Positions 16,903 through 46,724 of a stretch of DNA of 64,000 nucleotides are shown here, in pieces. The notes beneath the pieces are model-generated. The model did no database searches. It saw nothing but the letters and a program-made list of their open reading frames with translations, and was not told where the DNA came from. The position numbers and the translations under genes were made by a program. Source of the stretch: Candidatus Latescibacterota bacterium (GTDB lineage: Bacteria > Latescibacterota > UBA2968 > UBA8231); assembly GCA_965243025.1 (NCBI GenBank), contig CBDETY010000003.1:3552001-3616000 (forward strand), in the 5' to 3' direction. How positions within the stretch are numbered: the first letter of the stretch is position 1; every line of letters begins with the position of its first letter.

Positions 16903-16934
16903 AAGAGAACTTCGAAGCGCTGCCGGCCGGAATG

Positions 16935-17070
16935 GTTTGACAATTCCAGCGGAAGGGTTTCAATTGACATCCGTTTGTTTGACTTGCCAAACTTTTGATT
17001 GGTTGTATATTCATGCGGTTGCCTTTCCAATCGTATATTTGGCATGCAAATCAAATGATTGGCAAAGACT
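16935..17070 (+). promoter_or_regulatory. AT-rich promoter/operator region of the porin-imelysin-DHOR operon
   Basis: TTGCCA-16-TATATT (16984-17011). Nested inverted repeats TTGCCAA/TTGGCAA and TTTGATT/AATCAAA, plus ATTTG-GCATG-CAAAT. Confidence 0.5.
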
Positions 17071-17201
17071 ACCGGAGCTGGAAACTGCACTCCCGCCCCC
17101 CGGGACGCCTGCCAGATTCCCTGGCGGGAAAACGCGGGATTGCCCCGGCTCCCCGGTATGGGACTCTTGCCCGCCGACTGCCCTGACAAAGGACCGCAGG
17201 G

Positions 17202-17348
17202 ATGAATGTCATTACGGAAAACACCCGCCGATGGACAGCCGTTTACCGCTGTGATGCCGGCGGTATCCACCCGGTGTACCAGAACGTCAACATCGGCATG
17301 ACATGCTCGGAATTCCTCGTCCTGAACCGGAGCCTCCAGAAGGTATGA
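17202..17348 (+). CDS. 48-aa small protein leading the operon (not in ORF track)
   Basis: MNVITENTRRWTAVYRCDAGGIHPVYQNVNIGMTCSEFLVLNRSLQKV. Upstream AAAGGA, and ATGA overlap with the porin start. Confidence 0.6.
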   Translation: MNVITENTRRWTAVYRCDAGGIHPVYQNVNIGMTCSEFLVLNRSLQKV

Positions 17349-18574: not shown

Positions 18575-18610
18575 AGGTGGTTCATTCACCCTGTAACCGG
18601 AGAGACTCCC

Positions 18611-19684: not shown

Positions 19685-19715
19685 GGGCACGGAGTCGGGC
19701 AGGGGCACGCGTGAC

Positions 19716-21751: not shown

Positions 21752-22289
21752 GGAGGCTTTCGTCGGTCTCGGCTCAAACCTGGGGGACCGGCGCGGGTTC
21801 ATCGCCTCCGGAGTGGCGGCGATCCGCAGGCTGCCCGGGGTCGAGCTCTGTGTGCCCTCTTCCCTCTACGAAACCGACCCGGTCGGCCTGGAGGACCAGC
21901 CGCGCTTCCTGAATGCAGTCGCCCTCGTGCGCACCAGCCTGTCGCCCTCCCGGCTGCTGCGGTCCCTGCTCGCCATCGAGCAGGAGCACGGCAGGCAGCG
22001 GCCGATCCCCGACGGTCCGCGCACCCTCGATCTCGACCTGCTGCTGCACGGAAGCCGCGTCGCCGCCGATGCGGACCTGCAGGTTCCCCATCCCCGCATG
22101 ACCGGGCGCTGCTTCGTGCTCAGACCCCTGCTCGAGCTGGCACCCGGCCTCGTGCATCCCGGGACCGGTGAACGGCTTTCCGACTGCCTCGACAGGTGCG
22201 ACTGTTCGGGGGTTCGCCCGGCGGGAAGGCTTCCCGGCAGGAGTGCCGGGGATTCGGGGATCGCGGAGCCCGGACCCCTCTCTACCTGA
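21717..22289 (+). CDS. folK: 2-amino-4-hydroxy-6-hydroxymethyldihydropteridine diphosphokinase
   Basis: GLGSNLGDR, SSLYET.P, QP.FLNAV, GPRTLDLDLL, PHPRM..R.FVL.PL. Confidence 0.95.
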   Translation: MSKSKSRNPSPEEAFVGLGSNLGDRRGFIASGVAAIRRLPGVELCVPSSLYETDPVGLEDQPRFLNAVALVRTSLSPSRLLRSLLAIEQEHGRQRPIPDGPRTLDLDLLLHGSRVAADADLQVPHPRMTGRCFVLRPLLELAPGLVHPGTGERLSDCLDRCDCSGVRPAGRLPGRSAGDSGIAEPGPLST

Positions 22290-24291
22290 CGAGGGTCACC
22301 GGGGTGCGGTGGCCGGACCTGGAGCCGCCGCGGTCGGAGGCCGCCTTCGCTCTCGCGACGATCCAGTAGACTCCGCTGGCCGCAAGCCGTCCGCCCCGGT
22401 CGAGGCCGTCCCAGGCGATCTCGCGCGAGCCGGACGGAGGGGCCAGGTCCCTGATGCGCTGGCCCAGGGCGTTGTACACGGAGATCTCCAACCCCTCGGT
22501 ATCCCCGGTGAAGGGGATGCGGACCTCGGCGTTGAAGGGATTGGGGAACCCGGGGCCGAGTCTGAAAACCGGGCTGGCGGCGGCGACCGCCGGGCCCGGC
22601 CGGCCGCGGGCGTCCAGCGGTCCGACCGCGACTACTCGCATCCCGCCGCCCAGGGTCAGCTCCAGGACCTGACGCCGACCGCGGTTGAGTGGAATGCTGT
22701 GCCACCGTCCCACGACCTTGCCCTCGGAGGTGAGGGCGCGGGCCTGGTAGAAACCGGTGACCCGGTCGGTGCTGGAGATGGTCAGGGCCACCCGGCCCGC
22801 CGCGTCGGTGACCGCGCTCCAGGCGTAGTCGCGCCGGCGCCCGGCAATGGCGCGGGAGAACTCGACGGTCAAACCCTCGACCGCGTCGCCCAGGACCGTG
22901 GCCTCCACCCCCGTGCGGCGCGCGGCGACCGGCTGCAGGTGGCGCGCCGATATCTCGAACTCCCCAATTACAGCGGAGGTTCTGCCGACGATCAGCGCCA
23001 TGCTGTCGATCTCCGCCGCAATCGCGGAGCCCCGGTTCGAGGCATCGAGCTCGAGCTCGCGAAACTCGCTTCCCCCGGCGCGCATCGACCGTGTCCAGAC
23101 CCGGTACCGCCCCCCTTCCTTTCCGGCGAACTCCAACTGAACACTCCCCGGGGTTCGCAACAGAATGGCGATCGTTCCCCACCGATCCTCGACGCTGCCC
23201 ATGCGGCTCTCCAGCGGCAGCCTGTCGATCGGGTACCAGAGCGCCCGCCGTCCCCTCAGCGCCCCGTAGGTGATCTCATCCCCTTCCGCGGCGTAGTTGC
23301 CGAGGATCCACCCCGACCAGGCCTCCTCGAAGTCCCCGCGCAGGCCGAGACCGGCAAAGGCGGCGTCGATGCCGGGGATGCCGTTCTCCTGCTCCGCCAC
23401 GACGGCGCGGATCAGGTCCCCGCCGTAACGCTCGGCCAGAAAAGCCGAAAACAGGTAGGTCGATCCGTAGTTCCAGGCCCGGTTTTCCCACGCGGTCAGG
23501 CCGGCGCCCGGGCGCCGCAGGAACGCGCCGACGACGGTCGAATCCGCCTCGGGAAACCCGGTCAGGGCCTCGGCGTACCCCGACATCCCCTCGTTCACCC
23601 AGATCTCCTCGTCCATGTCGTGGCCCCAGTGGATGAGGTGCTGGAACTCGTGCGCGAGGGTGCCGCGCGCCAGGTACGTCTGGCGGCGCAGGTACCACTC
23701 GTCGACGTAGAGGATGTCCCTGCGCATTTCGGGAACCTCGTGCCCGGCGACCCGGGCGTCGAAGAACCCGACCAGGCGGGAATCGGGGATGTCGAGAATC
23801 AGCAGGAACACCTGGGGGTAGCCGTCGACGTCGGGAACAGCGCCGAAGGCCTCGGTGCACAGGTCGTGGATGCCGCGGCCGGGATCGGCCGGGGTGGCGC
23901 GCTCGAACAGGTCGGCGACGACGTCTACGTGGGATTGCAGTATCGAGCCGCCGTTGGTGTCCCACTGGCGGTCCTCGACGAACACGAACACCCGTTCTCC
24001 GGCGTAGCGGCAGGTCGCCTGCACAAGGCGCGGGTTGCCGGCGACGGGGAACTCCTGCCGGGTCCCGACGCCGATCTCCGGGAGATCCTGCCGGGCGTCA
24101 GCGCTCCCGGCCGGTTTGGCGGCCCGGAGCGGATGGTCCGGAAGCGGGAACTCCGTGGCAAGCAGCTCGACGAGGCGCGTGCCGCACTGGTACGGGGCCG
24201 CGGCCGACCCCTGGTCCGGGCGCACGCCGACGGCGCCAAGGACAACCGCGAAAAGGAAAACGACTCCTGGCCTGTCCGTGGCGACCTGCAT
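22282..24291 (-). CDS. Secreted zinc metallopeptidase (M30/hyicolysin-like) with an uncharacterised inserted domain and C-terminal T9SS/FlgD-Ig sorting domain
   Basis: Signal peptide; FG..PDVDG; TLAHEFQHLI...E..W.NEG.S; CTD FPNPFN..V.I.F...VYN.LGQ.IR.L...WDG.D..G....SGVY. Confidence 0.85.
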   Translation of the reverse strand: MQVATDRPGVVFLFAVVLGAVGVRPDQGSAAAPYQCGTRLVELLATEFPLPDHPLRAAKPAGSADARQDLPEIGVGTRQEFPVAGNPRLVQATCRYAGERVFVFVEDRQWDTNGGSILQSHVDVVADLFERATPADPGRGIHDLCTEAFGAVPDVDGYPQVFLLILDIPDSRLVGFFDARVAGHEVPEMRRDILYVDEWYLRRQTYLARGTLAHEFQHLIHWGHDMDEEIWVNEGMSGYAEALTGFPEADSTVVGAFLRRPGAGLTAWENRAWNYGSTYLFSAFLAERYGGDLIRAVVAEQENGIPGIDAAFAGLGLRGDFEEAWSGWILGNYAAEGDEITYGALRGRRALWYPIDRLPLESRMGSVEDRWGTIAILLRTPGSVQLEFAGKEGGRYRVWTRSMRAGGSEFRELELDASNRGSAIAAEIDSMALIVGRTSAVIGEFEISARHLQPVAARRTGVEATVLGDAVEGLTVEFSRAIAGRRRDYAWSAVTDAAGRVALTISSTDRVTGFYQARALTSEGKVVGRWHSIPLNRGRRQVLELTLGGGMRVVAVGPLDARGRPGPAVAAASPVFRLGPGFPNPFNAEVRIPFTGDTEGLEISVYNALGQRIRDLAPPSGSREIAWDGLDRGGRLAASGVYWIVARAKAASDRGGSRSGHRTPVTLVR

Positions 24292-24302
24292 TGCGCGATG
24301 CG

Positions 24303-24953
24303 TCAGAAGCGGTGGATCAGGGACACGGCCGTCCCCCGCGGAAGGAGTACCAGGTCCAACTCCACCGCTCGCTCCGGCGCCCGGGCGGCAGCCTCCGCGT
24401 CATGGGAGCTCATTGACCGGCGGGCGGCGTGGACCGCGGCAACGAGATGGTTGGCGATGATCAGCCCGGTCGCCATCACGGCGTTGCGGTCGGCGCCCCG
24501 GGCGGAATTCCGCAGCTCGCGGAAGCGCAGGCGCGACTCGGCCCGGTCCCATTCCCAGAAGAACTCGCCGCTGTCGGGGTACAGCTGCGCCGAGGCCCCC
24601 TCTTCCACCGCGGCGTAGCGGTTGTGCTGATGGAAACTCTCGTAGAACCCGAGGTCGTCGAAGTACTGCTTCGACTTCCCCGACGGTCTGGCGCCGGCGT
24701 GAACCGCGGCGTGGGTCCGGAAGTTCCGCTCGCGGATATCGGCGACCCGTCGAAATCCAAGGTAGCTCCCCCAGAGGGCGGCCTCGAAGCCGAGAAAGCG
24801 GGCGGCCGCCGTCGAGTGGCCGTTCAGGTACTGGCCGGCCCCCGGAAGCAGCAGCGACGACCAGAAGGCCCTGGCCGCGGATGTCCCGGCATGGGCGGGA
24901 GCCGCCAGCACCAGCAGGGCGAGAACCCCTGGAGCGAGGGCGCGCAGCGCCAT
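24303..24953 (-). CDS. DUF5683-like exported/membrane protein
   Basis: A.W.SLLLPG.GQY.NG motif; YFDDLG.Y; NH.VAAV.A; C-terminal Phe. Confidence 0.75.
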   Translation of the reverse strand: MALRALAPGVLALLVLAAPAHAGTSAARAFWSSLLLPGAGQYLNGHSTAAARFLGFEAALWGSYLGFRRVADIRERNFRTHAAVHAGARPSGKSKQYFDDLGFYESFHQHNRYAAVEEGASAQLYPDSGEFFWEWDRAESRLRFRELRNSARGADRNAVMATGLIIANHLVAAVHAARRSMSSHDAEAAARAPERAVELDLVLLPRGTAVSLIHRF

Positions 24954-25907
24954 TCAGAAAAGCGGCCTCCAGGCGAGGATCATCGGGGTCTTTCCCGACG
25001 GGCCGCCGCGGACGAAGGCGAGCCTCGTGCGGCGCTGAAGCGTTGCCTTGTCGGCGCCGCGGGCAGCGAGGCGGGCGGCCCGGGAGGCGTCGATGGCGCT
25101 GATGACGTGGTTGACGAGGATCAGGCCCGCTACGTTGGTCGCTCTTTTCAGGAACCTGTTGCTTTCGTTCCGCTGGTCCTCGTAGGCGAAGCGCTGCTCG
25201 GAAACGAAGTTCTCGGCCGAGTCGATCTCGGTCGGCTGAACGAGGTTGCCGCCCCGGTCCCTGACGTCTTCCCATCCGGAGACGAACTGGTCGTACTTCC
25301 CGATCAGCTCGTAGTACTGCTGCCTCTCGACCTCGGGGCACTGGGAAATCCCCTCTCCACCGACGACGAAGGTGCTGCACGGCAGGGCGTGGGTGATCGA
25401 TGAATTGCGCGAGATCGTCGACCCTCTCCAGTCCATGTACCGGAGGACGTCCCACTGCTCGTCGGCGACCCCCCTGAAATCCTCCTCGATATCCTTGCCC
25501 TTGCCGTTCCAGGAGAAATACAGCCCCCAGGCCGCCGCTTCCAGGCCGAAGAACAGGACCGCCCTTTTCCGGGCCCCGGCGTACAACTCGCCGAATCCGG
25601 GCAGCATTGCCGAATAGAGCAGCGCACGCCCCGGCGACTTGGGCGGCTTCGGCTCCGGGGATACTGCCGCGGGACCTTCCGCGCTGTCCGCCTGCGCCAG
25701 CATTCGCGGCCGGACGCTGCCGTCCGCAACCGACGCGAACAGCCGCGGCAGCTGCCCGTTCACGGTCAGGGAGGACTTCCCGTGCTGCGGCGGAGCAGGG
25801 CTTGCGGTCCCCTCTTCGGCCCCTGCAGCACCGGCGAGGAAGCAGAAGAGCGCCAGCACCGGGGTGCTTCTGCGGGCGGCATTTCCTCCGGCACTCGGAA
25901 TCAGCAT
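24954..25907 (-). CDS. DUF5683-like exported/membrane protein (paralog)
   Basis: KSP.RA.L.SA.LPG.GE.Y; QQYYELIGKYDQF..GW; NHVISAIDA; C-terminal Phe. Confidence 0.8.
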   Translation of the reverse strand: MLIPSAGGNAARRSTPVLALFCFLAGAAGAEEGTASPAPPQHGKSSLTVNGQLPRLFASVADGSVRPRMLAQADSAEGPAAVSPEPKPPKSPGRALLYSAMLPGFGELYAGARKRAVLFFGLEAAAWGLYFSWNGKGKDIEEDFRGVADEQWDVLRYMDWRGSTISRNSSITHALPCSTFVVGGEGISQCPEVERQQYYELIGKYDQFVSGWEDVRDRGGNLVQPTEIDSAENFVSEQRFAYEDQRNESNRFLKRATNVAGLILVNHVISAIDASRAARLAARGADKATLQRRTRLAFVRGGPSGKTPMILAWRPLF

Positions 25908-25920
25908 CGCGACATCCTTT

Positions 25921-28900
25921 CTACAGATAACCGAACAGCACGGTGAGGTAGAATTTCCAGGGGGAGCGTCCGGGCAGCTCGTCGATCCCGCGGGCGAGAT
26001 CGGCCTGTGCCCGGGTGGGCAAACTGTAATACGAGATCGAATCGAGGCGCAACTGAAACCCGATGTCGCGCAACGGCCCGGAGCGGCCGTAGAAGGGGTC
26101 GAGATCGCCGAACTCCCCGTCCCAGGCTTTGCCGAGGCTGCCGTAGACCGCCCCGTACAGCTTGTCGAGGTAGATGTGAAAGAGCCGCTTCCGCATGTCC
26201 GGCAGCAGCGGAAAGCGGAACAGCGCCGATCCCATCGCCGCCTTGCGGCCCTCGATGCTGTAAAAGGTGTACCCCTTCATGTACTGCAGGCCGCCGATGT
26301 GGTAGTCGAAGAAGTCGTTGACGCGGTCGTCGTCGTCGACCTCGCCGCTGTCGATCCACCCCCCGAAGAAACGCAGCTCCAGGGCGGTGCCGAACGGCGT
26401 GCCGAGGTATTCCTTCCAGTCGAGCTCCCACTGGTTGTAGAAAAGCCCGAGGTACACCTCCTCGAGGAAGGAGGCGTTGCTGCGGTTGAACTCCTCGAGG
26501 AAGTAGTTGAACACGCGGTCGTAGCGGAACCTGATGCGCCGGCCCCCGCGAGGGTTTATGTCCCTGTCGCGGCGCCGCTCCACCGCCTGGTAATCGTAGC
26601 GTGCCCCGAGGGCGAAGCCGTTCAGGTAGGTGTAGCCGATCGGCTTCATGCGGCGGCGCTCGAACCCGGGGGCGCCGTCGCTGCGGGGAACGAAGGCTTC
26701 CCAGTCGAGGCCGGCGTCGTAGCGGTCGTAGGTCAGCGACAGGGTGAGCTGCCGCCTCAGGGAGGGCCGCTCGTCCCCGATCCGCAGGCCGGCAGCGACC
26801 TGGTTGAGGCTGAAGTTCATCCCGGTGATTATGGCGTCCCGGGCTTCGCTGCTGTCGCCGCGGCTGGTGTGGCGTTTCTGGTGGTAGTACTCGAGAAAGA
26901 GGGTCGGCCGCCAGCGGCGGTGCTCGTACAGGGCGAAGAGCTCGCGGTCGCCGTTGCCCGGTGCGATGGCGAAGCCGCCGAACAGGCTCTGCTTCCGCAG
27001 GACGTCGGAAGAGGAGGCGTACGCTCCCCCCTTTACGCGGCCCTCGTCCCACACCAGGCGCGGCAGCACCATTGTCCTGAGCAGCTCTCCTCCGTACGCC
27101 CGCGGGGCGGAAATCCCTGTGGGGGCTGCCGCCGAAGTCTGCTGCGCAAGTACTCCTGCTTCCGGAGAGGCCGGGGTCGGTCGGGCAAACTCTGTGCCCC
27201 CGGCCCGGGCGTCGAGGCCTGCTGCCGGCCTTGAGAAGGATTGCGAGGCAGCGGCCGGGTGCGCCGAGGCGGTTGGCGTCCCGGCGCTCGACAGCCTTCC
27301 CGTCCCCTCTCGCGCTCCCGGATCAGCTACGGTGCGCAGACGGAACCCGTCCGCTCCGTAGGCGGAGAAGACCACGCTGCCGCCGGGACCGGCCGCCGGA
27401 TTGATCGCGCCCCCGACCACGTTGGTTATCCGGCGGATCCCTCCCTCCACGACAGAAATCGCGTAGATATTGAAAATCCCGGTCGCGTCGGAGGCGAACA
27501 GGATCTCTCCACCCGTCGTCCAGGCCGGATCGCGTTCGGTTGCCCCGGTGGCCACCAGCGGCCGCATGGGACCGGCGAGGCCCGTGTCGGTGTGAATCGC
27601 AGGTCCGCTCGACGGCTTCCCGTCACCTTCCCTCAGCTTCCCGGCAGCCGCCTCGATCCCGCCGCGCTCGAGGTCGACCAGGACGATGTCCCGCTGCCCC
27701 CCGCGGGAGACCGACAGGGCCAGGGTCCCTCCGTCCGGCGACCAGGCAGGGGTGTAGAGCTCGGTGCCGTCGGCGAAATCGGTGAGGTAGAGGACGATGT
27801 CCCCAACGGCGCTGAGCAGGCCGAGGTTGTTCGAGCCGCCCTGGTTGCGGATGAACGCCAGCCACTCGCCGTCCGGGGACCAGGCCGGGTAGAAGGCGCG
27901 CAGTCCGGCGGAAAGCTGCTCCACCCGTTCCGGTTCCGGAGAGTAGGAGAGGACCATTCCAGGGAGCGCCCAGGACAGCTTCGACAGCAACCCCGGCTCA
28001 TCGCCGTCGAGGTCGCAGGTGAACAGGTCCGCCTGGCGCGAGCCGTACCTGTCGGCGCTGTGCTTGCGCACGTAGGCGATCCTGCGTCCGTCGGGCGACC
28101 AGGCCGGACGCGACACCACGCCGCCGGCGACGACTTCATCCTCGCCGGTCTCGAGGTCGCGGATGACGAGCCGGTGGGGTCCGTACTCCCCCGCTCCGGT
28201 GGACAGGAAGGCGAGCCGGTCTCCTGCGGGCGCGTACACGGGATGGATGTTGGAGAACCCCGAGTCGGTGATCTCCTCCCCTTCCCGCAGCTCCCCGAGC
28301 CCTGCGAGCTGCCTGGTGTAGACCTCGCGAAGATGCCGCCGCCACCCATCGTAGAGCTGGCCGGCGGTGATGCCGAGCACTTCCTCGACAGGGCCGTCGA
28401 TCTCGAGGGTGCGCCAGTCGGAGAGAGCGGCGCAGAGCTGCCGCAGGGCGTCGTCGCCGTGCTCGGCGGCGATGTAGCGGACCAGGGCGTAGCCGTGGTC
28501 GTAGACGAACTCGTTGCCGAAACCGGATTTGCCGAACACTCCCATCTGATCGAAGGACAGCAGCTCCTCCTCGAGCGCGGCGACGCGCAGCACCATGTCG
28601 CGGTTGGCGTCCCAGCGGTCGTGCCTTGCGGCGGCCACCTGGTACTGCGCCACCCCCTCGGCGAACCACATCGGGAAGACCGTGGCCGCCAGGGGATAGG
28701 AGACCAGCAGGTCGGGGAACCCGGTCAGGATATCGGGGCGGTTGCGCTCCCGCTGGTACCCGAAATGCTGGAGGTAAAGCGCCGGGGTGCGCTGCCATGC
28801 CTTGCGCGCCGCCCCGAGGGAGACGATGTGCACGAACTCGTGGGTGATGACGTTTGCCAGCCAGTCGCAGGTGCCGCGCAGGTCGAAGTCGTGATCGAGG

Positions 28901-29205
28901 GGAGTGGTCCAGATCTCGATGGCGTCGTGATAGAAGAAGGCGGCGCCGTTGGCGTAGTCGTCGTAGTCCTTGAGAACGATGCGCACCCTGCCGCCGGGGC
29001 GGTAGCGGTAGAGCTCGGTCACCGGACCGTACGCGGCCTCGGCGATCTCGGCCGCCCTCCCGGCAGCCCGGCGCAGACCGTCGTGGTAGAAAACCTCGAA
29101 GTGGGGGGTCTGCAGGACCTCCCACTGCAGCTCGGGGTGGTTCTGTGCCCGGGAGGCTCCCTGCCAGAACAGCAGGACGAGGAGGGCCGGGGCCGCCTTC
29201 CTCAT
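25921..29205 (-). CDS. Gluzincin (MA-like) peptidase + TolB/PD40 propeller + C-terminal outer-membrane barrel protein
   Basis: Signal peptide MRKAAPALLV; HPELQW...TPHF.V.YH; VITHEFVH...WFAEG.A; repeated P(A/V)WSPDG; C-terminal amphipathic strands ending FYLTVLFGYL. Confidence 0.85.
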   Translation of the reverse strand: MRKAAPALLVLLFWQGASRAQNHPELQWEVLQTPHFEVFYHDGLRRAAGRAAEIAEAAYGPVTELYRYRPGGRVRIVLKDYDDYANGAAFFYHDAIEIWTTPLDHDFDLRGTCDWLANVITHEFVHIVSLGAARKAWQRTPALYLQHFGYQRERNRPDILTGFPDLLVSYPLAATVFPMWFAEGVAQYQVAAARHDRWDANRDMVLRVAALEEELLSFDQMGVFGKSGFGNEFVYDHGYALVRYIAAEHGDDALRQLCAALSDWRTLEIDGPVEEVLGITAGQLYDGWRRHLREVYTRQLAGLGELREGEEITDSGFSNIHPVYAPAGDRLAFLSTGAGEYGPHRLVIRDLETGEDEVVAGGVVSRPAWSPDGRRIAYVRKHSADRYGSRQADLFTCDLDGDEPGLLSKLSWALPGMVLSYSPEPERVEQLSAGLRAFYPAWSPDGEWLAFIRNQGGSNNLGLLSAVGDIVLYLTDFADGTELYTPAWSPDGGTLALSVSRGGQRDIVLVDLERGGIEAAAGKLREGDGKPSSGPAIHTDTGLAGPMRPLVATGATERDPAWTTGGEILFASDATGIFNIYAISVVEGGIRRITNVVGGAINPAAGPGGSVVFSAYGADGFRLRTVADPGAREGTGRLSSAGTPTASAHPAAASQSFSRPAAGLDARAGGTEFARPTPASPEAGVLAQQTSAAAPTGISAPRAYGGELLRTMVLPRLVWDEGRVKGGAYASSSDVLRKQSLFGGFAIAPGNGDRELFALYEHRRWRPTLFLEYYHQKRHTSRGDSSEARDAIITGMNFSLNQVAAGLRIGDERPSLRRQLTLSLTYDRYDAGLDWEAFVPRSDGAPGFERRRMKPIGYTYLNGFALGARYDYQAVERRRDRDINPRGGRRIRFRYDRVFNYFLEEFNRSNASFLEEVYLGLFYNQWELDWKEYLGTPFGTALELRFFGGWIDSGEVDDDDRVNDFFDYHIGGLQYMKGYTFYSIEGRKAAMGSALFRFPLLPDMRKRLFHIYLDKLYGAVYGSLGKAWDGEFGDLDPFYGRSGPLRDIGFQLRLDSISYYSLPTRAQADLARGIDELPGRSPWKFYLTVLFGYL

Positions 29206-32200
29206 CGGGCGACCGCCATGCGCACGATGACGTGGCCGCGGCTGCCGTCGGCGGCGCTCGCCTCGAGCCGGCACAGGTAAAGCCCGCTTTCGTAGTCGCC
29301 GGTCCCCCAGGTGATTTCGTTTTCCCCGGGTTCCGCCTGCGGCGATCCGGCGTTCCACCGCCGCTTTTCCACCCGCCTTCCGATGGCGTCGAACACCTCG
29401 AGCTCGAGATCGGCCGGCCGGCTCAGAAAAAAGCGCAGGTGGGCGCGGTCCAGCGAACCGACCGGATTGGGGTAGCAATAGGCCCTGTCGGCCGGCAGCA
29501 GGGCGATCCCGGGCAGGGCGGCCGGGGAGCGTCCTCCGCGCACGGCGCGGCTCCCCTGCGCGTCAGCGGCGCCCTGGCCCCAGGCGGCGGTTCCGCTCCC
29601 GCCCAGTGCGGGAGAAAGGCTCTCCGCATCCCATGCATAAGCGAAATCTCCGGCCAGGGCGGCGATCTCCAGCCCTCCGTCGCCGTCGAGGTCGGAGGCG
29701 ACCGGCGTCGAGCCGACTGCCGCTGCCGTCAGCACCGGGAAGCCGCCGAGCTGACCGCCGCCGTCGTCGATGGCGGCGATCGCACCGGCGCTCGCCGCCA
29801 CGAGGATCTCCTGTCTTCCGTCCCCGTCGAGGTCGGCCAGCAGCGGCTCCCACTCGGTAGTTCCCAGCTTCTGGTGCCTCGGGAACTCCACCGGAAACGA
29901 CGGCATCCGGTGGCCGTTCTCCCGCAACAGATCGACGGCGGCTCCGGAAGCGACGGCAATCTCGAGGGAACCGTCGCCGTCGACGTCTCCGAGGGCGGCG
30001 GGGGCGTCAGCTCCGTGCGGCAGCATCGCCTGCCAGAGGACCTCCCCTTCCCCGCTCAGGGCGGTGACCCTGCCGCCGGCGTCGACGGAGATGATCTCCC
30101 CGCCGCTGTCGCCGCCCAGGTCCCCGGCGACGCTCGGCAACAGCGGGCCTTCGCCTCCAGGTTCCCAGATCCTGCGGGGTCCCTCCGGCCCCAGGCCGGA
30201 AACCGCGTCCGGCGTGGTGACCAGCAGCAGCGCGGATCCCCCGCCGTCGGGCAGCAGGCCGAGGGCCACCGCTCCGGTGAGGCCGGCACCAGCCAGTACC
30301 TCGCCGGTACCCGCCTTCAGCAACTCGATTCTCGAGCCGGTTGCCACGGCCAGGACCGCCTCGGGCGACAGGCCCCCCGGACCGCTGTAAAGCCCGAGAA
30401 CCGCCTCTTCGCCGAGACTCGCCGACCACAGCGGCCCGTCTTGCAGCGGAAGGGATGCGGCGACTTCCCCTCCTGAGGCCACGAACACCGGACCGGGTTC
30501 CCCCGGCCTCCCGGCAGCGGCGGCGAGGTAGGCGCCGGTAAAGGAATCGGAAACGGTTGCCCGACCCCCGGCGAACAGGTGAACGCCCCGGTCGTTTTGC
30601 GCCAGCAGCTCAGCGGCCCCGTCGCCGTCGAGGTCGACCGCCTGCAGCCGCGCCCCCGCCGGCAGGCTTCCCGGCCAGCCCGGAAGGGGGCCGTCGAAGC
30701 TGATTCCGACCGTCATCACGTCCTCGAGAGAGGAGATTACTTCGATGCGAATGCCGCTGGCGACCCCGGTGTTGGCGCCGCTGTTCGGCGTCGTGCCGGG
30801 ACCGAACAGGGTCTTCGACCGGATGCCGCCTCGCCCTTCCCCGGCAAAGAAGGGATCGGCCGGACTGCCTTCGGTGACGTCCTGGCGGTCGAAGAAGGCG
30901 TTGCCGATGTCGCGCCCGCCGTCCGCCTCCTCCAGCGCGATCCCGGGGAAGACGCGGTCGTTGTTGATTCCGCCCTCCGCTTCCCGGGCGGCGATCACCG
31001 CCTCGTCGACGTGCCAGATCAGGATCCCGGACCCTGGAACGAAGGCGTCGTACTCCTCGACCCCGAGCCAGACCCCGGCCATGTCGCCCCCATCCGAATC
31101 GCCCGACCCGGAAAACTCCACCTGATCCGGCTCGATCCAGGTCACCGCGGTTCCCGCGAAGGGCGGCTCGACCCCCTCGGGCAGGTCGGCGTTGCCGCGG
31201 CGCTGGCGGTTCCCGATCAGGAAATACTCCGTCGCCGAAACCGGCACCTGCACCGCCTTGTGCTGTCCCGGCGCAACCGTGCGGTCCGTCGCCGCCACCG
31301 CGACCGCGGTATCCCGCCGCACGACGAGCGGTTCGATCCAGCCGAGACGGGCCTTGCTCCAGGCCATCGGGTGGGGGGGCACGAACCCGAACAGAGTCTC
31401 CAGCTCCCCTCCCTGCAGCAGGAAACCGACCCGGTTGGGACCGACGTCCATCAGGCTCCAGCCTCCCGCACCCGGCAGACCGGCGGCGAAGTTCGACATG
31501 CCCGGCAGCCCGAGCTGGTGGCCGAAGAACTTCGCCATCAGGCCGTTGAGCCCGGCGCGGCCGCGGTCGTCGGCCGCCTCCGGGAGGATCCACGCCTCGC
31601 GGATCCCGGCGCCGTCGGCGAGAACCGGACCCCCTGCGGCACTGCTCTCGAAGTCGTCCGCCGACAGGAACACCGAGAGTATGTCATTCAGATTCTGTCC
31701 GGTCTCGTGCCCGTAGCCGGCATGCAGGAACAGATAGCTGTCGAACCGGGAAAAATCGGGACCCCCGGGATCGGCCCGGGCCAGCTCGACGGCGTCGCGC
31801 ACGAGCTGAACCCACTTGTCGTTTATCTCCTGCGGCGAGCGGCCGTTGCCGTACTGCAGGGCCGGCTCAGGCAGGGTGTAGGCGTCGTTCAGGCCAGCCG
31901 GGAAAACCTCGTGCTCGATGGCGACGCGGCCTTCCGAAACGGTCCGGTAGTAGCGGCCGAGAGCCTCGAGATGGCGCTCGAAATAGAGGCGGTCGTGGGG
32001 TGGAAGATCGTAGGGGAATTCGTAGTCCTGGAGCGCTTCGGAGCTCGTGCGCAGGTCGAATTTACCCAGGCCGGAGGTCGAAGGTTCGTCCGGCTCCTCG
32101 AGCGGGAAGTCGACCCGGATCGCCAGGACGCGCCACGTCGCGGCCCCGTCCTCCTGTCCTCCGGCCCCGGTCGCGAGGAGGAGGGCAGCCGCCAGTGCAG

Positions 32201-32237
32201 GCGCGCGTCTGCCCGGATGTCCGCGGAGCCTCCTCAG
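29202..32237 (-). CDS. M6 (immune inhibitor A)-like pseudo-peptidase + FG-GAP/VCBS repeats + T9SS CTD; probable CTG start at 32237
   Basis: Frame is open 145 codons upstream of the track start and encodes a signal peptide plus VLAIRVDF..PPHD..YF...L...YY..VS.G. Also FLHAG.G, WSLMD.G, AWSK..LGW, EYFL..NR, GILIWHVDE, multiple DLDGDG repeats and YPNP CTD. HExxH is replaced by KFFGH. Confidence 0.85.
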   Translation of the reverse strand: MRRLRGHPGRRAPALAAALLLATGAGGQEDGAATWRVLAIRVDFPLEEPDEPSTSGLGKFDLRTSSEALQDYEFPYDLPPHDRLYFERHLEALGRYYRTVSEGRVAIEHEVFPAGLNDAYTLPEPALQYGNGRSPQEINDKWVQLVRDAVELARADPGGPDFSRFDSYLFLHAGYGHETGQNLNDILSVFLSADDFESSAAGGPVLADGAGIREAWILPEAADDRGRAGLNGLMAKFFGHQLGLPGMSNFAAGLPGAGGWSLMDVGPNRVGFLLQGGELETLFGFVPPHPMAWSKARLGWIEPLVVRRDTAVAVAATDRTVAPGQHKAVQVPVSATEYFLIGNRQRRGNADLPEGVEPPFAGTAVTWIEPDQVEFSGSGDSDGGDMAGVWLGVEEYDAFVPGSGILIWHVDEAVIAAREAEGGINNDRVFPGIALEEADGGRDIGNAFFDRQDVTEGSPADPFFAGEGRGGIRSKTLFGPGTTPNSGANTGVASGIRIEVISSLEDVMTVGISFDGPLPGWPGSLPAGARLQAVDLDGDGAAELLAQNDRGVHLFAGGRATVSDSFTGAYLAAAAGRPGEPGPVFVASGGEVAASLPLQDGPLWSASLGEEAVLGLYSGPGGLSPEAVLAVATGSRIELLKAGTGEVLAGAGLTGAVALGLLPDGGGSALLLVTTPDAVSGLGPEGPRRIWEPGGEGPLLPSVAGDLGGDSGGEIISVDAGGRVTALSGEGEVLWQAMLPHGADAPAALGDVDGDGSLEIAVASGAAVDLLRENGHRMPSFPVEFPRHQKLGTTEWEPLLADLDGDGRQEILVAASAGAIAAIDDGGGQLGGFPVLTAAAVGSTPVASDLDGDGGLEIAALAGDFAYAWDAESLSPALGGSGTAAWGQGAADAQGSRAVRGGRSPAALPGIALLPADRAYCYPNPVGSLDRAHLRFFLSRPADLELEVFDAIGRRVEKRRWNAGSPQAEPGENEITWGTGDYESGLYLCRLEASAADGSRGHVIVRMAVAR

Positions 32238-33286
32238 AACGTCAGGTTCAGGGAGAAACGGGTGTTGTCCTCCATCGGCGTGTCGTCACCCGTCACGTAC
32301 GCCACGTCGACCTGGAACATGTTGTATTTCAGTCCCATCCCGAACGTGGGGAATTTGAGCTCGCCGTCGTGGTCCCACCTGTATCCGGCCCGCAGCGCGA
32401 GAAACGACTGGTCCTGCTGGGCAGACAGGCCGTAGCGGTACTCCCCGCCCACGTGGAAGTCCATTTCCTCGATCTCGTTGCCGAGGCCCTCGTCCGCCCA
32501 CGCCTTCACCAGGTTGCCGGCGAACGAGCCGTCGGCGATCAGGGGTTTGTAGAGATCGAATGCGAGCAGGACGTCGTGGTACTCGGCGTCGAGCAGCTCG
32601 TAGGCGAAGCCGGCGACGATATGCTGCGGAAGGGGATCGGCCTGGCTCGGGTCGATGTAGGCCATCTTGGGGCCGAGATAGCGGAGCGCCGAGCCGAACG
32701 TAAGGGCCGGTGTGATGTCCCAAAGCATACCGAGGTCGGCGGCAAAGCTGCTGCCGACTCCCTTGCCGCGCTCGATTCCCGCACCCTGTTCGGGAGAGAG
32801 GCGGCTGTGGATGAACTTCAGGCCGACGCCCGCCTTCATGTTGTCGGAGACGTCCGCGCCGTAGGCGACGCTGACCGCGAACTCGTTGCTCGAGAAGGTC
32901 CCGAGCACGTCGTCGGGCCGCTCACCCATTCGCGTCTGCTCCCCGAGATTCATCCAGATTCCGTTGATACCGACGTTCCCCCAGCCCTCGACCGGTTGCG
33001 AGTAGGCGACGAACTCGTACGACATGTCGTCGGCGAGACCGGGAAGCCACTTCGCATGAGTCAGGTGGAGCTTGCGCTCGGTCTGCCCGGCGAGGGCGGC
33101 AGGGTTGAAGTAGCTGGCGTTGTCCTCGACAGCGACGTACGACTCCCCCATCGCTATGGACCGCGCATCCGGCTTTATCAGGAGGAAGATGACAGTGGCG
33201 CGGCTCTCCGAGGTAGCCGAGGCGGGTTCGGCCGCGGCGGCCAGCAGGGAGACGGTCACGCACCAGGCGGCGAGTTTGTCAAGCAC
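32234..33286 (-). CDS. porV: Type IX secretion outer-membrane shuttle PorV
   Basis: FLLI.PDAR...MGE...A.....YFNPA.L, H..WLP.L..DM, G.....DLG, ALRAGY, P..NT.RFSL..F; immediately downstream of porU. Confidence 0.85.
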   Translation of the reverse strand: MLDKLAAWCVTVSLLAAAAEPASATSESRATVIFLLIKPDARSIAMGESYVAVEDNASYFNPAALAGQTERKLHLTHAKWLPGLADDMSYEFVAYSQPVEGWGNVGINGIWMNLGEQTRMGERPDDVLGTFSSNEFAVSVAYGADVSDNMKAGVGLKFIHSRLSPEQGAGIERGKGVGSSFAADLGMLWDITPALTFGSALRYLGPKMAYIDPSQADPLPQHIVAGFAYELLDAEYHDVLLAFDLYKPLIADGSFAGNLVKAWADEGLGNEIEEMDFHVGGEYRYGLSAQQDQSFLALRAGYRWDHDGELKFPTFGMGLKYNMFQVDVAYVTGDDTPMEDNTRFSLNLTF

Positions 33287-33440
33287 TTGTGGTTTCCTCC
33301 TGAGGTTTCACTTCGAAATCTGCTTCCGCTTCGTTACCGCCCTGAAACGGGTGCCGGGCATTCGTTTGCCCGGGCCGGCGGCAGGAAAGGTCCGCGCCTT
33401 CCTTCGTTTCCGCGATCGGGACTTTCCCCGGGCGCAGCGG

Positions 33441-36400
33441 TCATTTCATCACCTGGATGGCGGCCTTCCTCTCGATGCGCCAGCCATCGGCGAGCTCGAC
33501 CTCTACCTGGTACAGGTAGGTGCCGTTGGCGAGCTCCCCGGGAGGAGTCCAGGCCACCTGGTTGAAGTCGGCATGCCCCGTGCCGGAAAGCTCGTCGACG
33601 AGCGTTCCGGCGAGCGAGAACACCCTGATGCGGACAGATTCCGCTGCATCTTCGAGAGTGTACGTGAAGTCGCCCCTGTCCCGCATCGGGTTCGGGTGGA
33701 ACAGCAGCCGGGAAAGCACCCCGTCCTCCGCCTCCGAGACACGCACTTCCGCCTCGACCTGCGACGAGTTGTTGAACGTGTCCCAGGCCTTGAGACGCAA
33801 GGTATGGGTACCCGGTTCCATGGCGGGCAGCGGGAACTCGAGGAGGCCGCTGCGGTAGTCCCCGGTATTGTGGAAGTGCTCGGTGACGATGAAGCGCGCA
33901 CCGTCCACCCGGAGCTCCATTTCGTGCCCGGTTTCCCCGGTTATGTTGATGCCGTTCCGATCGCTGATCACAGCTTCGAGGACCGCTTCGCCGGGGATGG
34001 TGTCCCCGCTTTTGAAACCATCCTTCCCCTTGAATCCAATCGCAATCTCGGGTCCGGTCTCGTCGGCGGAAACGCCGGTCGCCGTGCCGGCGAGAACCAG
34101 GCTGTCGACCGACCCGAAAGCGGCCCGGGCATGGTCACTCCAAACATAGGCACTGACCCGGCCGTTGTCCTCCTTGTAGCTGATGTCCTTGGGCACGCGG
34201 AAGGCGGTCTCGAAACGGCCCCCTGCAACCGGTACCAGGCCGCGGAAAATCGGATTCCCGATTCGGTCGTAGGAGATATCGTCCAGCTTGCTCCTCGTAG
34301 TGGAGTCGAACGCCTGCACGAGGGCGGTTCCGGTGAAGTCTTCCACCGGCCGTCCGTCGGAGTCGAGAATCCGGCCGGCGACGCGGACCTCCTCGAGCGC
34401 CCGGACCGAATCCGGCACCTCGATGGCGACGACGTACCGGGGTCTGGCGAGGCGCAGCGCCGGGTCGCCGATCAGGCAGTAGCGCTGCATGTTGGTGCGG
34501 TCGTCCTCGTTGCCTGTGATGTTCTGCTTGGCGATCGTCAGCGCCAGTCCGAGAGGCAGGTGACTCTCCCCCGATCTGTACATCAGCCGGTGGAACTCCC
34601 GGGCGAGGTACATGTTGCTGCTGTGGAATCCTACCCGGGCGGCCGATATGAACCCGATCACCCCGCCGTCGGCGCGGTTCATCAGAACCTCCGGGATCGA
34701 CTGCTGGTTCGGATCGTCGAACACCCCGACCTGGCTCGCGGCCGTGTACATGAACGGCAACCGCCTGCCGTTGTCGATCAGGTCGGCGTCCCTTGAAAGC
34801 AGGAACATCTTCTCGTGGGCGAGCACGTCGAGGCTCCCGTGTCCGAGGTAGGTGACAATCAGCGCTCCCTCGTTGAAGCGGCGCACGAAGGCATCCCTTG
34901 CCTGCGGCTTGGTGCTCCCCTCGAGCGGAAACTGGGCGATGTAGAGCTTGACGAGATCGAGGTCGGCAGGGAAGAAGCGCTTCGCCAGCGACTCGGCGTC
35001 GAGGATGAAGTAGGATTCCCTGAGTTCCAGTTTCGACGGATGGCGCAGGTCGTCCGCCACCAGCAGCACCCGGCTCTGCCATGGACCGACCTCCGGGTCC
35101 GAGTCGTACGAGATCAGCTTGTCGACCACCCCCTCCGCCTCCGTTGCCGACTGCACCGGCAATCTGCCGATGGCCAGGTCGGGAATCCGGTCCTCTCCTT
35201 CGACCCGCACGTACCATTCGTCGAACATGCTTATGCCTTCCTGGTACGCCGGCATCCAGTTCGGGTGGCTGGTGCCCGTGCTGTTCTTGTAGTCGTAGGT
35301 CCCGTCACCCATCAGGCAGATGAACCAGGGAGCAGGGTCCCAGTTGTCGACCGCGTAGTTGACGAACGACCGGATCGCCATCGGATCGACCAGCCCCCCG
35401 GAGAACTCGTCGTACACGTCCTCGACGTCGACCGAAATCGCCCGCATCGGTCCGAAACGGTCCCCGGCGGCGCGCCACTCCGCCAGGCGGTCGGCGGCGG
35501 CGCGGAAATCGGCATGGGTGAGAACGATGTAGTCCGCGCCGTTTCCCGGGGTGCGCAACCTGCTGGGGAAATCGAGCCGTATGTTTGCCGGCCGCTTCCA
35601 CCGGGAGGGCGCACTGGCGATGTATCGAGGCGGAATTCCCCCGCCTTCGAACCGGTCCTGGAAGACCGCGGTTCCCGCGGTCCCGTCCCAGTCGAAACCG
35701 ACGATTTCCCTCGGCCACCCCAGCCCGGAGATCGCGAAGATCCGGGGTTTTCCCTCTTCGGCGAACCCCGACAGAACAAACTCCGCCGTTACCGCGTCCT
35801 CATTCTCAAGCATCGCCGACGGCGGCCAGGCGAAGGTCAGCTCGCCCCCCTCAGCCGACAGCCGGCGGTCGAATTCGACCTCGATCCAGTCCAGGCGCGT
35901 CCCCTTGTTGTCGCGCTGGAAGATTCCGAGCTGATTCAGGCCCTCCTTCGGGCCCTGCGGGGCCCGCGCCCGGAGGGTGGCCACGAACATGCTGTCCATC
36001 CTTGCCTGTCCTGCCAACTCGTCGTTCCAGTACAGATCGAACCTGTGGACGGCTCTCTTCGATCCCCAGAAACGGACCCGGATGTCGACGGGGGTCCCCG
36101 GGACCGCTTCGCGCACGATCACGGAAAAGTTGCGGGCGTTCCCCCCGAAGTCCTCCCAGTACCAGTCGTAACCGGTCTTTATGCTCCACGTCAGCAACCG
36201 GATCATGCGGTCGTCCTCGAGATGGATCCGCTCGCGGTAGCTGTCGATCCGGCGCGCCGAACCGTTGTCCAGAGCTCCGCTGCTTCGACTCATCCTGAGA
36301 CCCTCCACCTCGGCGCCGGTATCGAGGAAGTAGACGTTCTCCTCGGTGAAGGGATTCTGCCGCCAGAAATACTGCTTCGCGTCGCGCCCGTACTCCCAGC

Positions 36401-37379
36401 GTTGGGTCGCCTCGCCGTAGAACAGCAGGAAGTCGTCCGCGTCGAAGCGGCCGTCGCCGCCGTCCTCGACCAGGACCGGGATTTCGCGGCGGGAGATACC
36501 TGGGATTACGGCGCGCTGGAGACCCAGAACCCGGCCCCCTCCGTACAGCATGCGCAGGCGTTCCGGGGCAACCGTCTCCAGATCGATGCCCGCTTCGGCC
36601 AGGGCGGCCCCGGTGACTTTGTACATGCCGTTGCTGCGGACCGTGAGCCTGAGCACCTCGCCGCTCAGCGTCTGCTCATCGGTTGCCTTGCCGGCCCCGG
36701 GGCTCCCCGCCGGGAGACGCCAGGACCTCGCCTGCTCGTAGTTGACGAGGGTGTTGCGGTACAGCAGCTCCCCCCACTTGTCGGGCCGGGAACGCCGTTT
36801 CGATCCCGGAGAGCTGGAAAAGCGCAGCTCGACCTCGATGCGGTCGAAAACGGTGAGTTCCTCGCCGTCGAGCCGGGGTCCGAACCCGACGGCAACTACT
36901 TCCTGCCTTCGCAGAAGGCCGCGTTCCCCGAGCGCGACCGGGCCCTGGACCAGACCCGCGAAGTGCTCCACCGCCCCGGGCGCGTGGACTCGTGCGGCGA
37001 CGCGGGCTTCGATGACCTCCATCTCGACTTCGCTGTCCGGGGGAATGCCGACGGTGCAGCTGCGGTGGAGGTCGCGGAGGTGATCGAAGGCGATCGGCTC
37101 GACCGAAGCGGGACCGGATGGAGTCTCGGGCCCGGCCTCGTAGAGAAGGCGCACGCTGCCGGGACCGTGCCCGGTCATTTCGGCAGACGCCGTCCAGGAA
37201 CTGGCCAGGACGGCTCGGGCATGGGAAAGCTGCCCGGCGAGTCCGGCGGGGGTTTCAGGCCCGCGGGGCGGGGGTGAGTCCATTGCCGGCCAGGGGGGCT
37301 GCGCTTCCACCGCCGCGGTCAGGGCCGCGAGCGAGAGGACGAGCGCAATCCCGTCCCGCGGAGTACGGTTGAAGATCAC
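33441..37379 (-). CDS. porU: Type IX secretion sortase PorU (peptidase C25/gingipain family) with CTD
   Basis: G.YKVTG..L, L.YGGG, FYG...W.Y, ADYI...F..AA.RLA..R, VYDEFSGG..DP.AIR.F, GDG.YDYK, IGRLPV, YLGHG, LIGDPA, D..GPEI, L.LKAWD..NNS, PNP CTD. Confidence 0.9.
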   Translation of the reverse strand: MIFNRTPRDGIALVLSLAALTAAVEAQPPWPAMDSPPPRGPETPAGLAGQLSHARAVLASSWTASAEMTGHGPGSVRLLYEAGPETPSGPASVEPIAFDHLRDLHRSCTVGIPPDSEVEMEVIEARVAARVHAPGAVEHFAGLVQGPVALGERGLLRRQEVVAVGFGPRLDGEELTVFDRIEVELRFSSSPGSKRRSRPDKWGELLYRNTLVNYEQARSWRLPAGSPGAGKATDEQTLSGEVLRLTVRSNGMYKVTGAALAEAGIDLETVAPERLRMLYGGGRVLGLQRAVIPGISRREIPVLVEDGGDGRFDADDFLLFYGEATQRWEYGRDAKQYFWRQNPFTEENVYFLDTGAEVEGLRMSRSSGALDNGSARRIDSYRERIHLEDDRMIRLLTWSIKTGYDWYWEDFGGNARNFSVIVREAVPGTPVDIRVRFWGSKRAVHRFDLYWNDELAGQARMDSMFVATLRARAPQGPKEGLNQLGIFQRDNKGTRLDWIEVEFDRRLSAEGGELTFAWPPSAMLENEDAVTAEFVLSGFAEEGKPRIFAISGLGWPREIVGFDWDGTAGTAVFQDRFEGGGIPPRYIASAPSRWKRPANIRLDFPSRLRTPGNGADYIVLTHADFRAAADRLAEWRAAGDRFGPMRAISVDVEDVYDEFSGGLVDPMAIRSFVNYAVDNWDPAPWFICLMGDGTYDYKNSTGTSHPNWMPAYQEGISMFDEWYVRVEGEDRIPDLAIGRLPVQSATEAEGVVDKLISYDSDPEVGPWQSRVLLVADDLRHPSKLELRESYFILDAESLAKRFFPADLDLVKLYIAQFPLEGSTKPQARDAFVRRFNEGALIVTYLGHGSLDVLAHEKMFLLSRDADLIDNGRRLPFMYTAASQVGVFDDPNQQSIPEVLMNRADGGVIGFISAARVGFHSSNMYLAREFHRLMYRSGESHLPLGLALTIAKQNITGNEDDRTNMQRYCLIGDPALRLARPRYVVAIEVPDSVRALEEVRVAGRILDSDGRPVEDFTGTALVQAFDSTTRSKLDDISYDRIGNPIFRGLVPVAGGRFETAFRVPKDISYKEDNGRVSAYVWSDHARAAFGSVDSLVLAGTATGVSADETGPEIAIGFKGKDGFKSGDTIPGEAVLEAVISDRNGINITGETGHEMELRVDGARFIVTEHFHNTGDYRSGLLEFPLPAMEPGTHTLRLKAWDTFNNSSQVEAEVRVSEAEDGVLSRLLFHPNPMRDRGDFTYTLEDAAESVRIRVFSLAGTLVDELSGTGHADFNQVAWTPPGELANGTYLYQVEVELADGWRIERKAAIQVMK

Positions 37380-46700: not shown

Positions 46701-46724
46701 CCGCGGAGGAGCCTGGGCGTTGCC

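Follow-up and report, generated by a model that had tools for sequence, protein, structure and literature searches.

The Operon and Its Conservation

The window analyzed here is a 64-kb stretch of DNA (about 68% G+C) from the genome of a Candidatus Latescibacterota bacterium, and all positions are numbered within it. It contains seven co-oriented minus-strand genes (22282–37379), abutting or overlapping one another, which begin with those for two type IX secretion system (T9SS) proteins, PorU and PorV, and continue with five that we call g5, g4, g3, g2, and g1. The G+C content by codon position has the pattern of real genes in all seven frames (0.83–0.87 at third positions), and a signal peptide is predicted at the N-terminus of each product. 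The intergenic gaps measure 154 nt (porU–porV), 13 nt (g4–g3), 0 nt (g3–g2), and 11 nt (g2–g1); the porV stop and the candidate g5 start overlap as CTGA (32235–32237), and the g5 stop and g4 ATG overlap as ATGA, which we take as signs of translational coupling. The seven genes are a real operon, probably expressed as one unit. Their co-oriented, mostly abutting or overlapping layout had been described in an earlier reading of the letters alone (the sequence-only reading) and is confirmed here, with corrected starts for g5 and g4. A promoter and terminator scan found nothing above chance, and Rfam gave no match in the window.

No ATG, GTG, or TTG is available to g5 ahead of its conserved signal peptide and N-terminus, and its start is probably the CTG that overlaps the porV stop, the sole plausible candidate. 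The first canonical start, at 31802, was rejected, as it would remove 145 conserved residues. TTG or CTG is the sole option in about 25 of 35 g5 orthologues, which suggests weak, coupled initiation and the production of less g5 than PorV. The open reading frame (ORF) of g4 reaches to 29478, an artefactual extension: the 91 extra codons are not protein, and a typical signal peptide follows the ATG.

When species-representative genomes were searched with an alignment of g4 sequences, 44 loci from 43 metagenome-assembled genomes (MAGs) were obtained. By label, 18 loci are Latescibacterota, 20 are Gemmatimonadota-type, one is Handelsmanbacteria, and five carry no label; none is Bacteroidota. These labels, together with those of the nearest relatives (named homologues of g4 and PorU), agree with the earlier suggestion of a probable non-Bacteroidota genome. 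Where the match is full-length, g4 identity is 49–63%; one truncated match reaches 70%. Database homologues of g4 and of PorU also recur on contigs of identical length (for example 3589874, 126159, 5317192, and 63872). PorU, PorV, and g5 lie upstream of g4, in that order, in all 22 loci with at least 8 kb of upstream sequence, and g3-g2-g1 follow it in 27 of the 28 with at least 3.8 kb downstream; the conservation of gene order that the sequence-only reading had proposed to examine is therefore borne out within one lineage.

Two kinds of exception were found. Locus L020, which looks complete and lies on a 5.6-Mb contig, keeps PorU-PorV-g5-g4; g3-g2-g1 are absent within 10 kb, and the genes after g4 encode instead a hydrolase, a homocysteine methyltransferase, and MnmG (L020:13045–23027). 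Three other loci, L016 (13051–14834), L023, and L036, carry an insert between g4 and g3, consisting of a D12-class DNA adenine methyltransferase and a winged-helix (helix-turn-helix) protein, with the rest of the operon undisturbed. Given these exceptions and the counts of 22/22 and 27/28, PorU-PorV-g5-g4 is the tightest unit and g3-g2-g1 a second block, usually attached.

Such an arrangement might simply have been kept by shared descent in a narrow clade, with no functional meaning beyond PorU-PorV. All 44 loci do come from one lineage, with full-length g4 proteins at the identities given above, and housekeeping neighbors are syntenic too: L28 lies on one flank of the operon, and folK, folB, and a second PorV-like gene lie on the other. 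We nevertheless regard this explanation as very improbable, since the flanks have been remodelled while the seven genes have remained close together, stop codons overlapping start codons. The window has a 6-kb insert between purD and folB, in locus L042 g1 is followed by a gap of roughly 5.5 kb, flank spacing varies, and four neighbors in the window (a di-heme oxidoreductase, an imelysin, a porin-like protein, and a dehydrogenase) recur in none of the 44 loci, which indicates rearrangement around the operon and rarely inside it. Gene order outside operons is usually lost at 45–60% protein identity.

Between purD and folB, the window encodes (15622–21101) a 426-amino-acid protein, the porin-like protein, the imelysin (M75), and the di-heme oxidoreductase, a block that looks like an iron-uptake cluster. 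The last three are among the neighbors absent from all 44 loci; the 426-amino-acid protein was not among the queries.

PorU, PorV, and the Sorting Domains

PorU (33441–37379, minus strand), the T9SS sortase or peptidase of the C-terminal sorting domain (CTD), is a protein of 1,312 amino acids with a signal peptide, a C25 domain, and a CTD. On profile matches its identity is unambiguous: it scores 614.5 bits over its full length against NF033707 (cutoff 420), matches Peptidase_C25 (PF01364) with E 7e-74, and aligns with the PorU structure (PDB 6za2) with E 4.6e-61. Against the PorU2 model (NF052324) it reaches 140 bits, with a cutoff of 450, and so scores as a canonical PorU. Public annotation already names the PorU proteins of these genomes.

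The residue at the catalytic position differs from that described. In the alignment with 6za2, Ser882 (codon AGC, 34734–34736) falls on the catalytic Cys690 of Porphyromonas gingivalis PorU, with TAASQVG over TATCDFA. Of the Cys/His dyad that has been described for PorU, whose accepted mechanism proceeds via a thioester (PMC5121618 and PMC10202324, in the portions available), the window copy retains the His, as His847 (GHG), and has Ser at the Cys position. The position is Ser in all 32 operon copies (loci L001–L043), encoded by AGC in 18 and AGT in 14, always AGY and one step from TGY. Among 142 database homologues, 140 have Ser and two (P0365 and P0454) have Cys, so that the 174 sequences hold only Ser or Cys there; neither the His nor the TAASQVGVFDDP motif around it varies. 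The two Cys-type forms belong to different Ser-type subclades: P0365 lies inside a well-supported Ser clade and is 78% identical in the catalytic region to the Ser-type P0349, and P0454 is 72% identical to the Ser-type P0458 over most of its length. Cys in these two subclades probably represents reversion from Ser. Database searches with the window PorU and with P0365 returned matches that all come from one and the same lineage. A literature search that did not take in the PorU structure paper found, in the texts covered, no mention of serine at the nucleophile position of PorU.

The replacement could instead mean that PorU no longer cleaves. PorU would then be a noncatalytic scaffold left after the loss of its Cys, with CTD removal passed to the zinc peptidases g1 (at the surface) and g4 (in the outer membrane). 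Such a scaffold would fit the presence of Ser at the Cys690 position throughout the lineage, the inactivation of P. gingivalis PorU by C690A (PMC5121618, accessible part), and the encoding, alongside PorU, of two gluzincins with intact motifs and one pseudo-peptidase. It is nonetheless improbable in our judgment. The synonymous AGC/AGT split (18/14) reflects purifying selection on Ser, the position holds nucleophiles only, the His and its motif are invariant, and Cys has apparently returned twice. A position restricted to Ser or Cys within an invariant motif is what is expected of a working nucleophile rather than a dead enzyme, and these patterns point to Ser882 being such a nucleophile.

PorV (32234–33286, minus strand; 350 amino acids) is an outer-membrane shuttle barrel of the PorV family. 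It passes the subfamily model PorV_fam (NF033709, 222.6 bits, cutoff 90), stays below the cutoff of the equivalog model T9SS_OM_PorV (NF033710, 147.2 bits, cutoff 250), and matches the Flavobacterium PorV structure (PDB 6h3i_F) with E 2.2e-17. The names that the sequence-only reading had given to porU and porV are thus upheld, as is its placing of a second PorV/PorQ-family gene at 12032. This gene, outside the operon (12032–12961, plus strand), encodes a barrel of 309 amino acids that aligns with the operon PorV family at an hhalign probability of 99.8%. Its scores all lie below cutoff (PorVQ2, 130.4 bits against 325; PorV_fam, 75.7 against 90; PorQ NF033711, 49 against 220), and a PDB sequence search gave a weak PorV match alone (E 0.16). 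Its orthologues match the PorVQ2 and PorQ models in 20 of 20 cases and the PorV model in seven of 20, and it is syntenic in related loci. By these profile comparisons it is a true member of the PorV/PorQ superfamily, nearest to the PorV2 and PorQ models, and a candidate PorQ-like anchor.

A hidden Markov model (HMM) of the CTD was trained on CTD sequences taken from the operon proteins and from orthologues of these, and matched exactly three ORFs of the window: PorU, g5 (88.7 bits), and g1. As these three were among the training sequences, the independent part of the result is that no fourth ORF matched. The PNP...G..V..L...G.Y motifs, from which CTDs had earlier been assigned to three proteins, are visible in them, and the presence of T9SS-type CTDs would make PorU, g5, and g1 themselves T9SS substrates.

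The minus strand of the window also encodes, at 2974–8943, a lipoprotein of 1,989 amino acids (lipobox LTGTSC) made up of fibronectin type III repeats, in a region of strong G–C skew (−0.26); the CTD HMM finds no CTD in it.

Accessory Proteins of the Operon

g5 (29202–32237, minus strand; 1,011 amino acids) has a signal peptide, an inactivated M6-like domain, an FG-GAP beta-propeller region, and a CTD. Its N-terminal half matches the model of inactivated, T9SS-dependent M6 proteins (NF052323, T9SSA_dep_M6i) at 307.5 bits (cutoff 600) over profile positions 42–544 of 1,043, the FG-GAP C-terminal half lying outside the model; all 28 orthologues match it (best E 3e-98). The M6 domain model TIGR03296 gives 82.8 bits and FG-GAP_3 gives E 1e-12. 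At the place where HExxH is expected, g5 has AKFFGHQLGLPG; the degenerate zinc motif AKFFG(H/N/F/Y)Q is found in 28 of 28 orthologues, and HExxH is found in none. In an alignment with InhA (4yu5, E 0.013), InhA reads HxFGH...LGLPDEY at this place. g5 therefore combines a degenerate-zinc M6-like domain with a type A sorting domain, at a score and coverage short of the NF052323 equivalog. The composition proposed by the sequence-only reading (M6-like, FG-GAP, CTD) holds, with the M6-like domain now recognized as inactivated. The nearest solved relatives of the propeller region are sugar-binding FG-GAP propellers (PVL lectins, E 1e-4) and polysaccharide lyases.

g4 (25921–29205, minus strand; 1,094 amino acids) carries a signal peptide, a gluzincin domain, a TolB/PD40-like propeller, a low-complexity linker, and a predicted Omp85-type C-terminal barrel. 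HEFVH and the downstream Glu are intact, and H122, E123, H126, and E183 are invariant in 40 sequences. Pfam detects PD40, weakly Peptidase_MA_2, and Omp85 below cutoff (20.1 bits against 24); the propeller matches TolB structures with E 5e-18. The region of about 390 residues that follows the linker ends in LFGYL. Omp85 proteins have the lid-lock motifs (V/I)RG(Y/F) and (F/G)xDxG (PMC4490367). A similar (M/L)(K/R)GY occurs in all 40 g4 sequences (with Arg in ten), and YxDxG occurs in 27 of 40, the window copy having Ser there; by their order, these motifs would mark loop L6 and strand 13. Many g4 homologues have a precomputed PF01103 annotation, and 24 of the 30 nearest named Atlas clusters carry PF01103. 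A PDB sequence search with the profile of the barrel gave no match, and Pfam scans of g4 found no POTRA family. Several weak signs thus combine to predict an Omp85-like barrel: the Pfam match, the homologue names, the Atlas clusters, the lid-lock-like motifs, and the LFGYL end. Of the parts that had been read directly from the translation, the gluzincin and PD40 domains can be recognized, and the barrel is predicted.

The best 120 homologues of g4 are at least 51% identical to it, almost all over at least 95% of the query, and a profile search of 1.84 billion representatives found 2,766 clusters at E ≤ 1e-30. Of 149 representatives inspected, the majority retain the peptidase, the propeller, and the barrel alike, HExxH being situated at around residue 120. 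Among the named members are Latescibacteria, KSB1, a “Chlorobi” MAG, Marinimicrobia, bacteria of the Fibrobacteres–Chlorobi–Bacteroidetes (FCB) group, Rhodothermales, and Fibrobacterota. Most belong to the T9SS-bearing FCB group; two MAGs bear the labels Nitrospirota and Pseudomonadota.

g3 (24954–25907, minus strand; 317 amino acids) has a signal peptide, a DUF5683-like N-terminal motif (PGxGE), a Cys-pair region, an amphipathic helix, and a hairpin-like tail. g2 (24303–24953, minus strand; 216 amino acids) is its shorter paralogue with a Phe-ending tail (BLASTP E 6e-11, 27% identity over 187 residues). Against DUF5683 (PF18935) the two score 22.2 and 16.7 bits, below the cutoff of 26.7 and over profile positions 3–47 of 151 only; at E ≤ 0.01 the model is matched by 16 of the 22 members of the g3 family and by 14 of the 23 of the g2 family. 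Beyond this part, g3 has a conserved soluble domain with an invariant Cys pair. Neither protein has a strongly hydrophobic helix except for one in g2, and PDB sequence searches with g3 and with g2 found no relative. Relatives of g3 were seen in Eisenbacteria and Krumholzibacteriota clusters by language-model features, as a lead only. Of the earlier description of two DUF5683-like, Phe-ending paralogues, the paralogy stands and both proteins do end in Phe in the window; a conserved terminal Phe fails for g3, in which only four of 32 orthologues have it, whereas g2 orthologues have a terminal Phe in 19 of 30 cases and a terminal aromatic residue in 27 of 30.

At the C-termini of g2 (24303–24360) and g3 (24954–25020), two short strand-like segments precede an aromatic or Pro-Phe end (...LVRRF in g2, ...PMLMAYKPF in g3). 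These tails resemble an outer-membrane beta-signal or a putative barrel-docking strand.

g1 (22282–24291, minus strand; 669 amino acids) is a predicted secreted gluzincin with a T9SS-type CTD. Its motif reads HEFQHLIHW ... NEGMSGYAE, with H214, E215, H218, and E234 invariant, and both g1 and g4 have the HExxH and downstream Glu of MA-clan gluzincins; their Peptidase_MA_2 scores (24.3 and 13.7) are below the cutoff of 32.4. g1 reaches 33.9 bits against NF045524 (cutoff 140) and 28.3 against FlgD_ig (cutoff 27), and 20 of 23 family members weakly match Peptidase_MA_2, as 20 of 23 do PF18962. The label “M30-like” that g1 had been given is withdrawn, since the peptidase M30 (hyicolysin) family PF10460 is matched by none of the 23 at E ≤ 1. 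A close paralogy of g1 and g4 was likewise rejected: profile comparison aligned the HExxH region only, with 5% probability. The window copy of g1 has an insert of about 100 residues before the CTD (residues ∼462–560, window ∼22600–22900), found in none of 22 aligned orthologues.

Elsewhere in the window, on the plus strand, lies a VapC-family PIN toxin gene (46701–47156; TIGR00028, 126.6 bits, cutoff 73.6).

A Putative Cargo-Processing Module and Known Systems

We read the operon, with a probability of about 0.5, as a lineage-specific T9SS cargo-processing (sorting and attachment) module with nonhomologous accessory parts, in a lineage whose MAGs are labelled Latescibacterota or Gemmatimonadota. 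PorV would carry exported cargo to PorU, which would remove the CTD through a Ser-His, rather than a Cys-His, acyl-enzyme and then release or attach the cargo. g5, as a pseudo-protease with a lectin-like FG-GAP propeller and a CTD, would take the noncatalytic accessory role of PorZ, possibly binding sugar, and the PorQ/PorV2-like barrel at 12032 might hold it in the way that PorQ provides a dock for PorZ. g4 would use its own Omp85-type barrel as an outer-membrane anchor for its peptidase, which would trim or clear cargo, stalled substrates, or cleaved CTDs beside the machine. g3 and g2 would assist either g4 or the sortase complex in the envelope, and g1 would be a dedicated secreted peptidase cargo.

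The principal alternative is that two unrelated modules share one transcript, PorU-PorV-g5 serving T9SS sorting and g4-g3-g2-g1 forming a separate protease module of the outer membrane that would serve the quality control of envelope proteins or the scavenging of peptides, tied to T9SS only through the export of g1. We consider this possible, at well below even odds. The g4 architecture is widespread (2,766 clusters, most of the 149 representatives keeping all three domains, with members in the MAGs labelled Nitrospirota and Pseudomonadota) and has been described, in the available part of PMC4104836, as “WD40-like Omp85,” reminiscent of a BamA-BamB fusion and with no link to T9SS; moreover, g3-g2-g1 can be separated from the rest, as in L020, and an insert between g4 and g3 is tolerated in L016, L023, and L036. 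Against this alternative, g4 is never separated from PorU-PorV-g5 (22/22), and its start overlaps the g5 stop. The named members of the g4 family are mainly from the FCB group, and g1, which would close the second module, itself bears a T9SS CTD.

Besides the loss of g3-g2-g1 in L020, the g4–g3 inserts, the restriction of the observed conservation to one lineage in which L28, folK, and folB are also syntenic, the spread of the g4 family far beyond the operon, and the Ser in PorU, several further results weigh against the cargo-processing reading. None of the T9SS core genes SprA, GldKLMN, and PorW was found in the 64-kb window. The CTDs of PorU, g5, and g1 score 18.2, 16.8, and 19.0 against TIGR04183, below its cutoff of 23. 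Searches with g5, as a single sequence or as a 28-sequence profile, matched no PorZ chain up to E 10. Others bear on novelty. NCBI already curates the g5-type family as T9SS-dependent, in a model built beside those of PorU2 and PorV2, and the g4 architecture was catalogued in 2014 (Heinz and Lithgow, PMC4104836, in the part available). Furthermore, g5 and the 12032 barrel may simply fill the roles of PorZ and PorQ, in which case the logic could be canonical and carried out by nonhomologous parts.

A bolder version of the cargo-processing reading would make this a distinct T9SS attachment machine, in which a serine PorU works through an oxy-ester, g5 stands in for PorZ, and the barrel-anchored zinc peptidase with its two DUF5683-like partners is an integral subunit whose task is to process cargo or, by degrading cleaved CTDs, to free PorV for reuse. 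We hold this version to be doubtful. The suggestion of the sequence-only reading that the partners are not known T9SS subunits agrees with our searches, in which no partner passed the curated cutoff for PorZ, PorQ, or any other named subunit. Its further suggestion of four uncharacterized partners in an undescribed variant appears to survive for the seven-gene combination; it does not for g5, whose family is curated as T9SS-dependent (NF052323), or for the architecture of g4, on the accessible part of PMC4104836.

The cleavage, release, and attachment of T9SS cargo are understood in a few Bacteroidota only, where they rely on the Cys-His thioester chemistry of PorU and on PorZ delivering anionic lipopolysaccharide (A-LPS). 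A deeply conserved operon from another phylum could help to tell the universal parts of the attachment step from the replaceable ones: this one keeps PorU and PorV, swaps the nucleophile, would replace PorZ by an unrelated pseudo-protease/propeller, and adds a putatively barrel-tethered zinc peptidase. It could also place the widespread “WD40-like Omp85” proteins and the DUF5683-like ones in a functional setting for the first time, and the Ser/Cys switch is directly testable with recombinant protein. The available part of one account treats T9SS outside Bacteroidota as likely (PMC11285876). Our literature searches found no paper linking Latescibacter to T9SS or type IX secretion, nothing on operon structure in work on T9SS of other FCB phyla, and no confirmed mention of PorU2 or PorV2 as T9SS terms.

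Among known proteins, the “WD40-like Omp85” family (PMC4104836) resembles g4 in that a single polypeptide combines a domain resembling an aminopeptidase, a propeller resembling TolB, and a barrel resembling BamA; for its Caldithrix abyssi member H1XQ58, the supplement lists BamA, TolB, and the tricorn factor F3 (an aminopeptidase) as best fold hits. The portions of that paper available propose only a BamA-BamB-like platform and, unlike the present analysis, report neither a T9SS link nor gene context. Type Vd secretion (PlpD-type) likewise fuses an N-terminal enzyme to a C-terminal Omp85-type barrel; it differs in that the passenger of g4 is a peptidase with a propeller and that no POTRA is detected between passenger and barrel. 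g3 and g2 share with Pfam DUF5683 the N-terminal PGxGQ/E helix-pair motif, whereas they match only its first ∼45 of 151 positions, below cutoff, and add the Cys-pair domain and the hairpin-like tail. One DUF5683 protein, P. gingivalis PG0140, has been found in outer-membrane vesicles (PMC13744359, available part), and the partial texts returned by our search did not tie DUF5683 to T9SS.

The names and consecutive numbers of NF052323, NF052324, and NF052325 (inactivated M6, PorU2, and PorV2) suggest that they describe one cassette. The operon resembles it in that g5 and its 28 orthologues match the first model and that the 12032 barrel matches PorV2 best, and it differs in that no score reaches its equivalog cutoff (307 against 600 and 130 against 325) and that PorU is canonical rather than PorU2.

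The closest functional parallel would be the PorU/PorV/PorQ/PorZ attachment complex of P. gingivalis. Both have a PorU of the C25 type whose CTD is of the retained type, along with a PorV barrel, another PorV/PorQ-superfamily barrel in the genome, and a CTD-bearing, noncatalytic propeller accessory, g5 here and PorZ there. PorZ, in the available parts of the published accounts (PMC5121618, PMC10202324), is a propeller protein that keeps its CTD and supplies A-LPS; it has two seven-bladed propellers (structure 5M11), whereas g5 is an M6-like pseudo-peptidase with an FG-GAP propeller and without sequence similarity to it. The nucleophile of PorU is Cys there and Ser here, the 12032 barrel scores below the PorQ cutoff, and three or four of the operon products (g4, g3, g2, and g1) have no counterpart in that complex. 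Set against these systems, two features appear to be new: the conserved combination of the seven genes and the serine in PorU.

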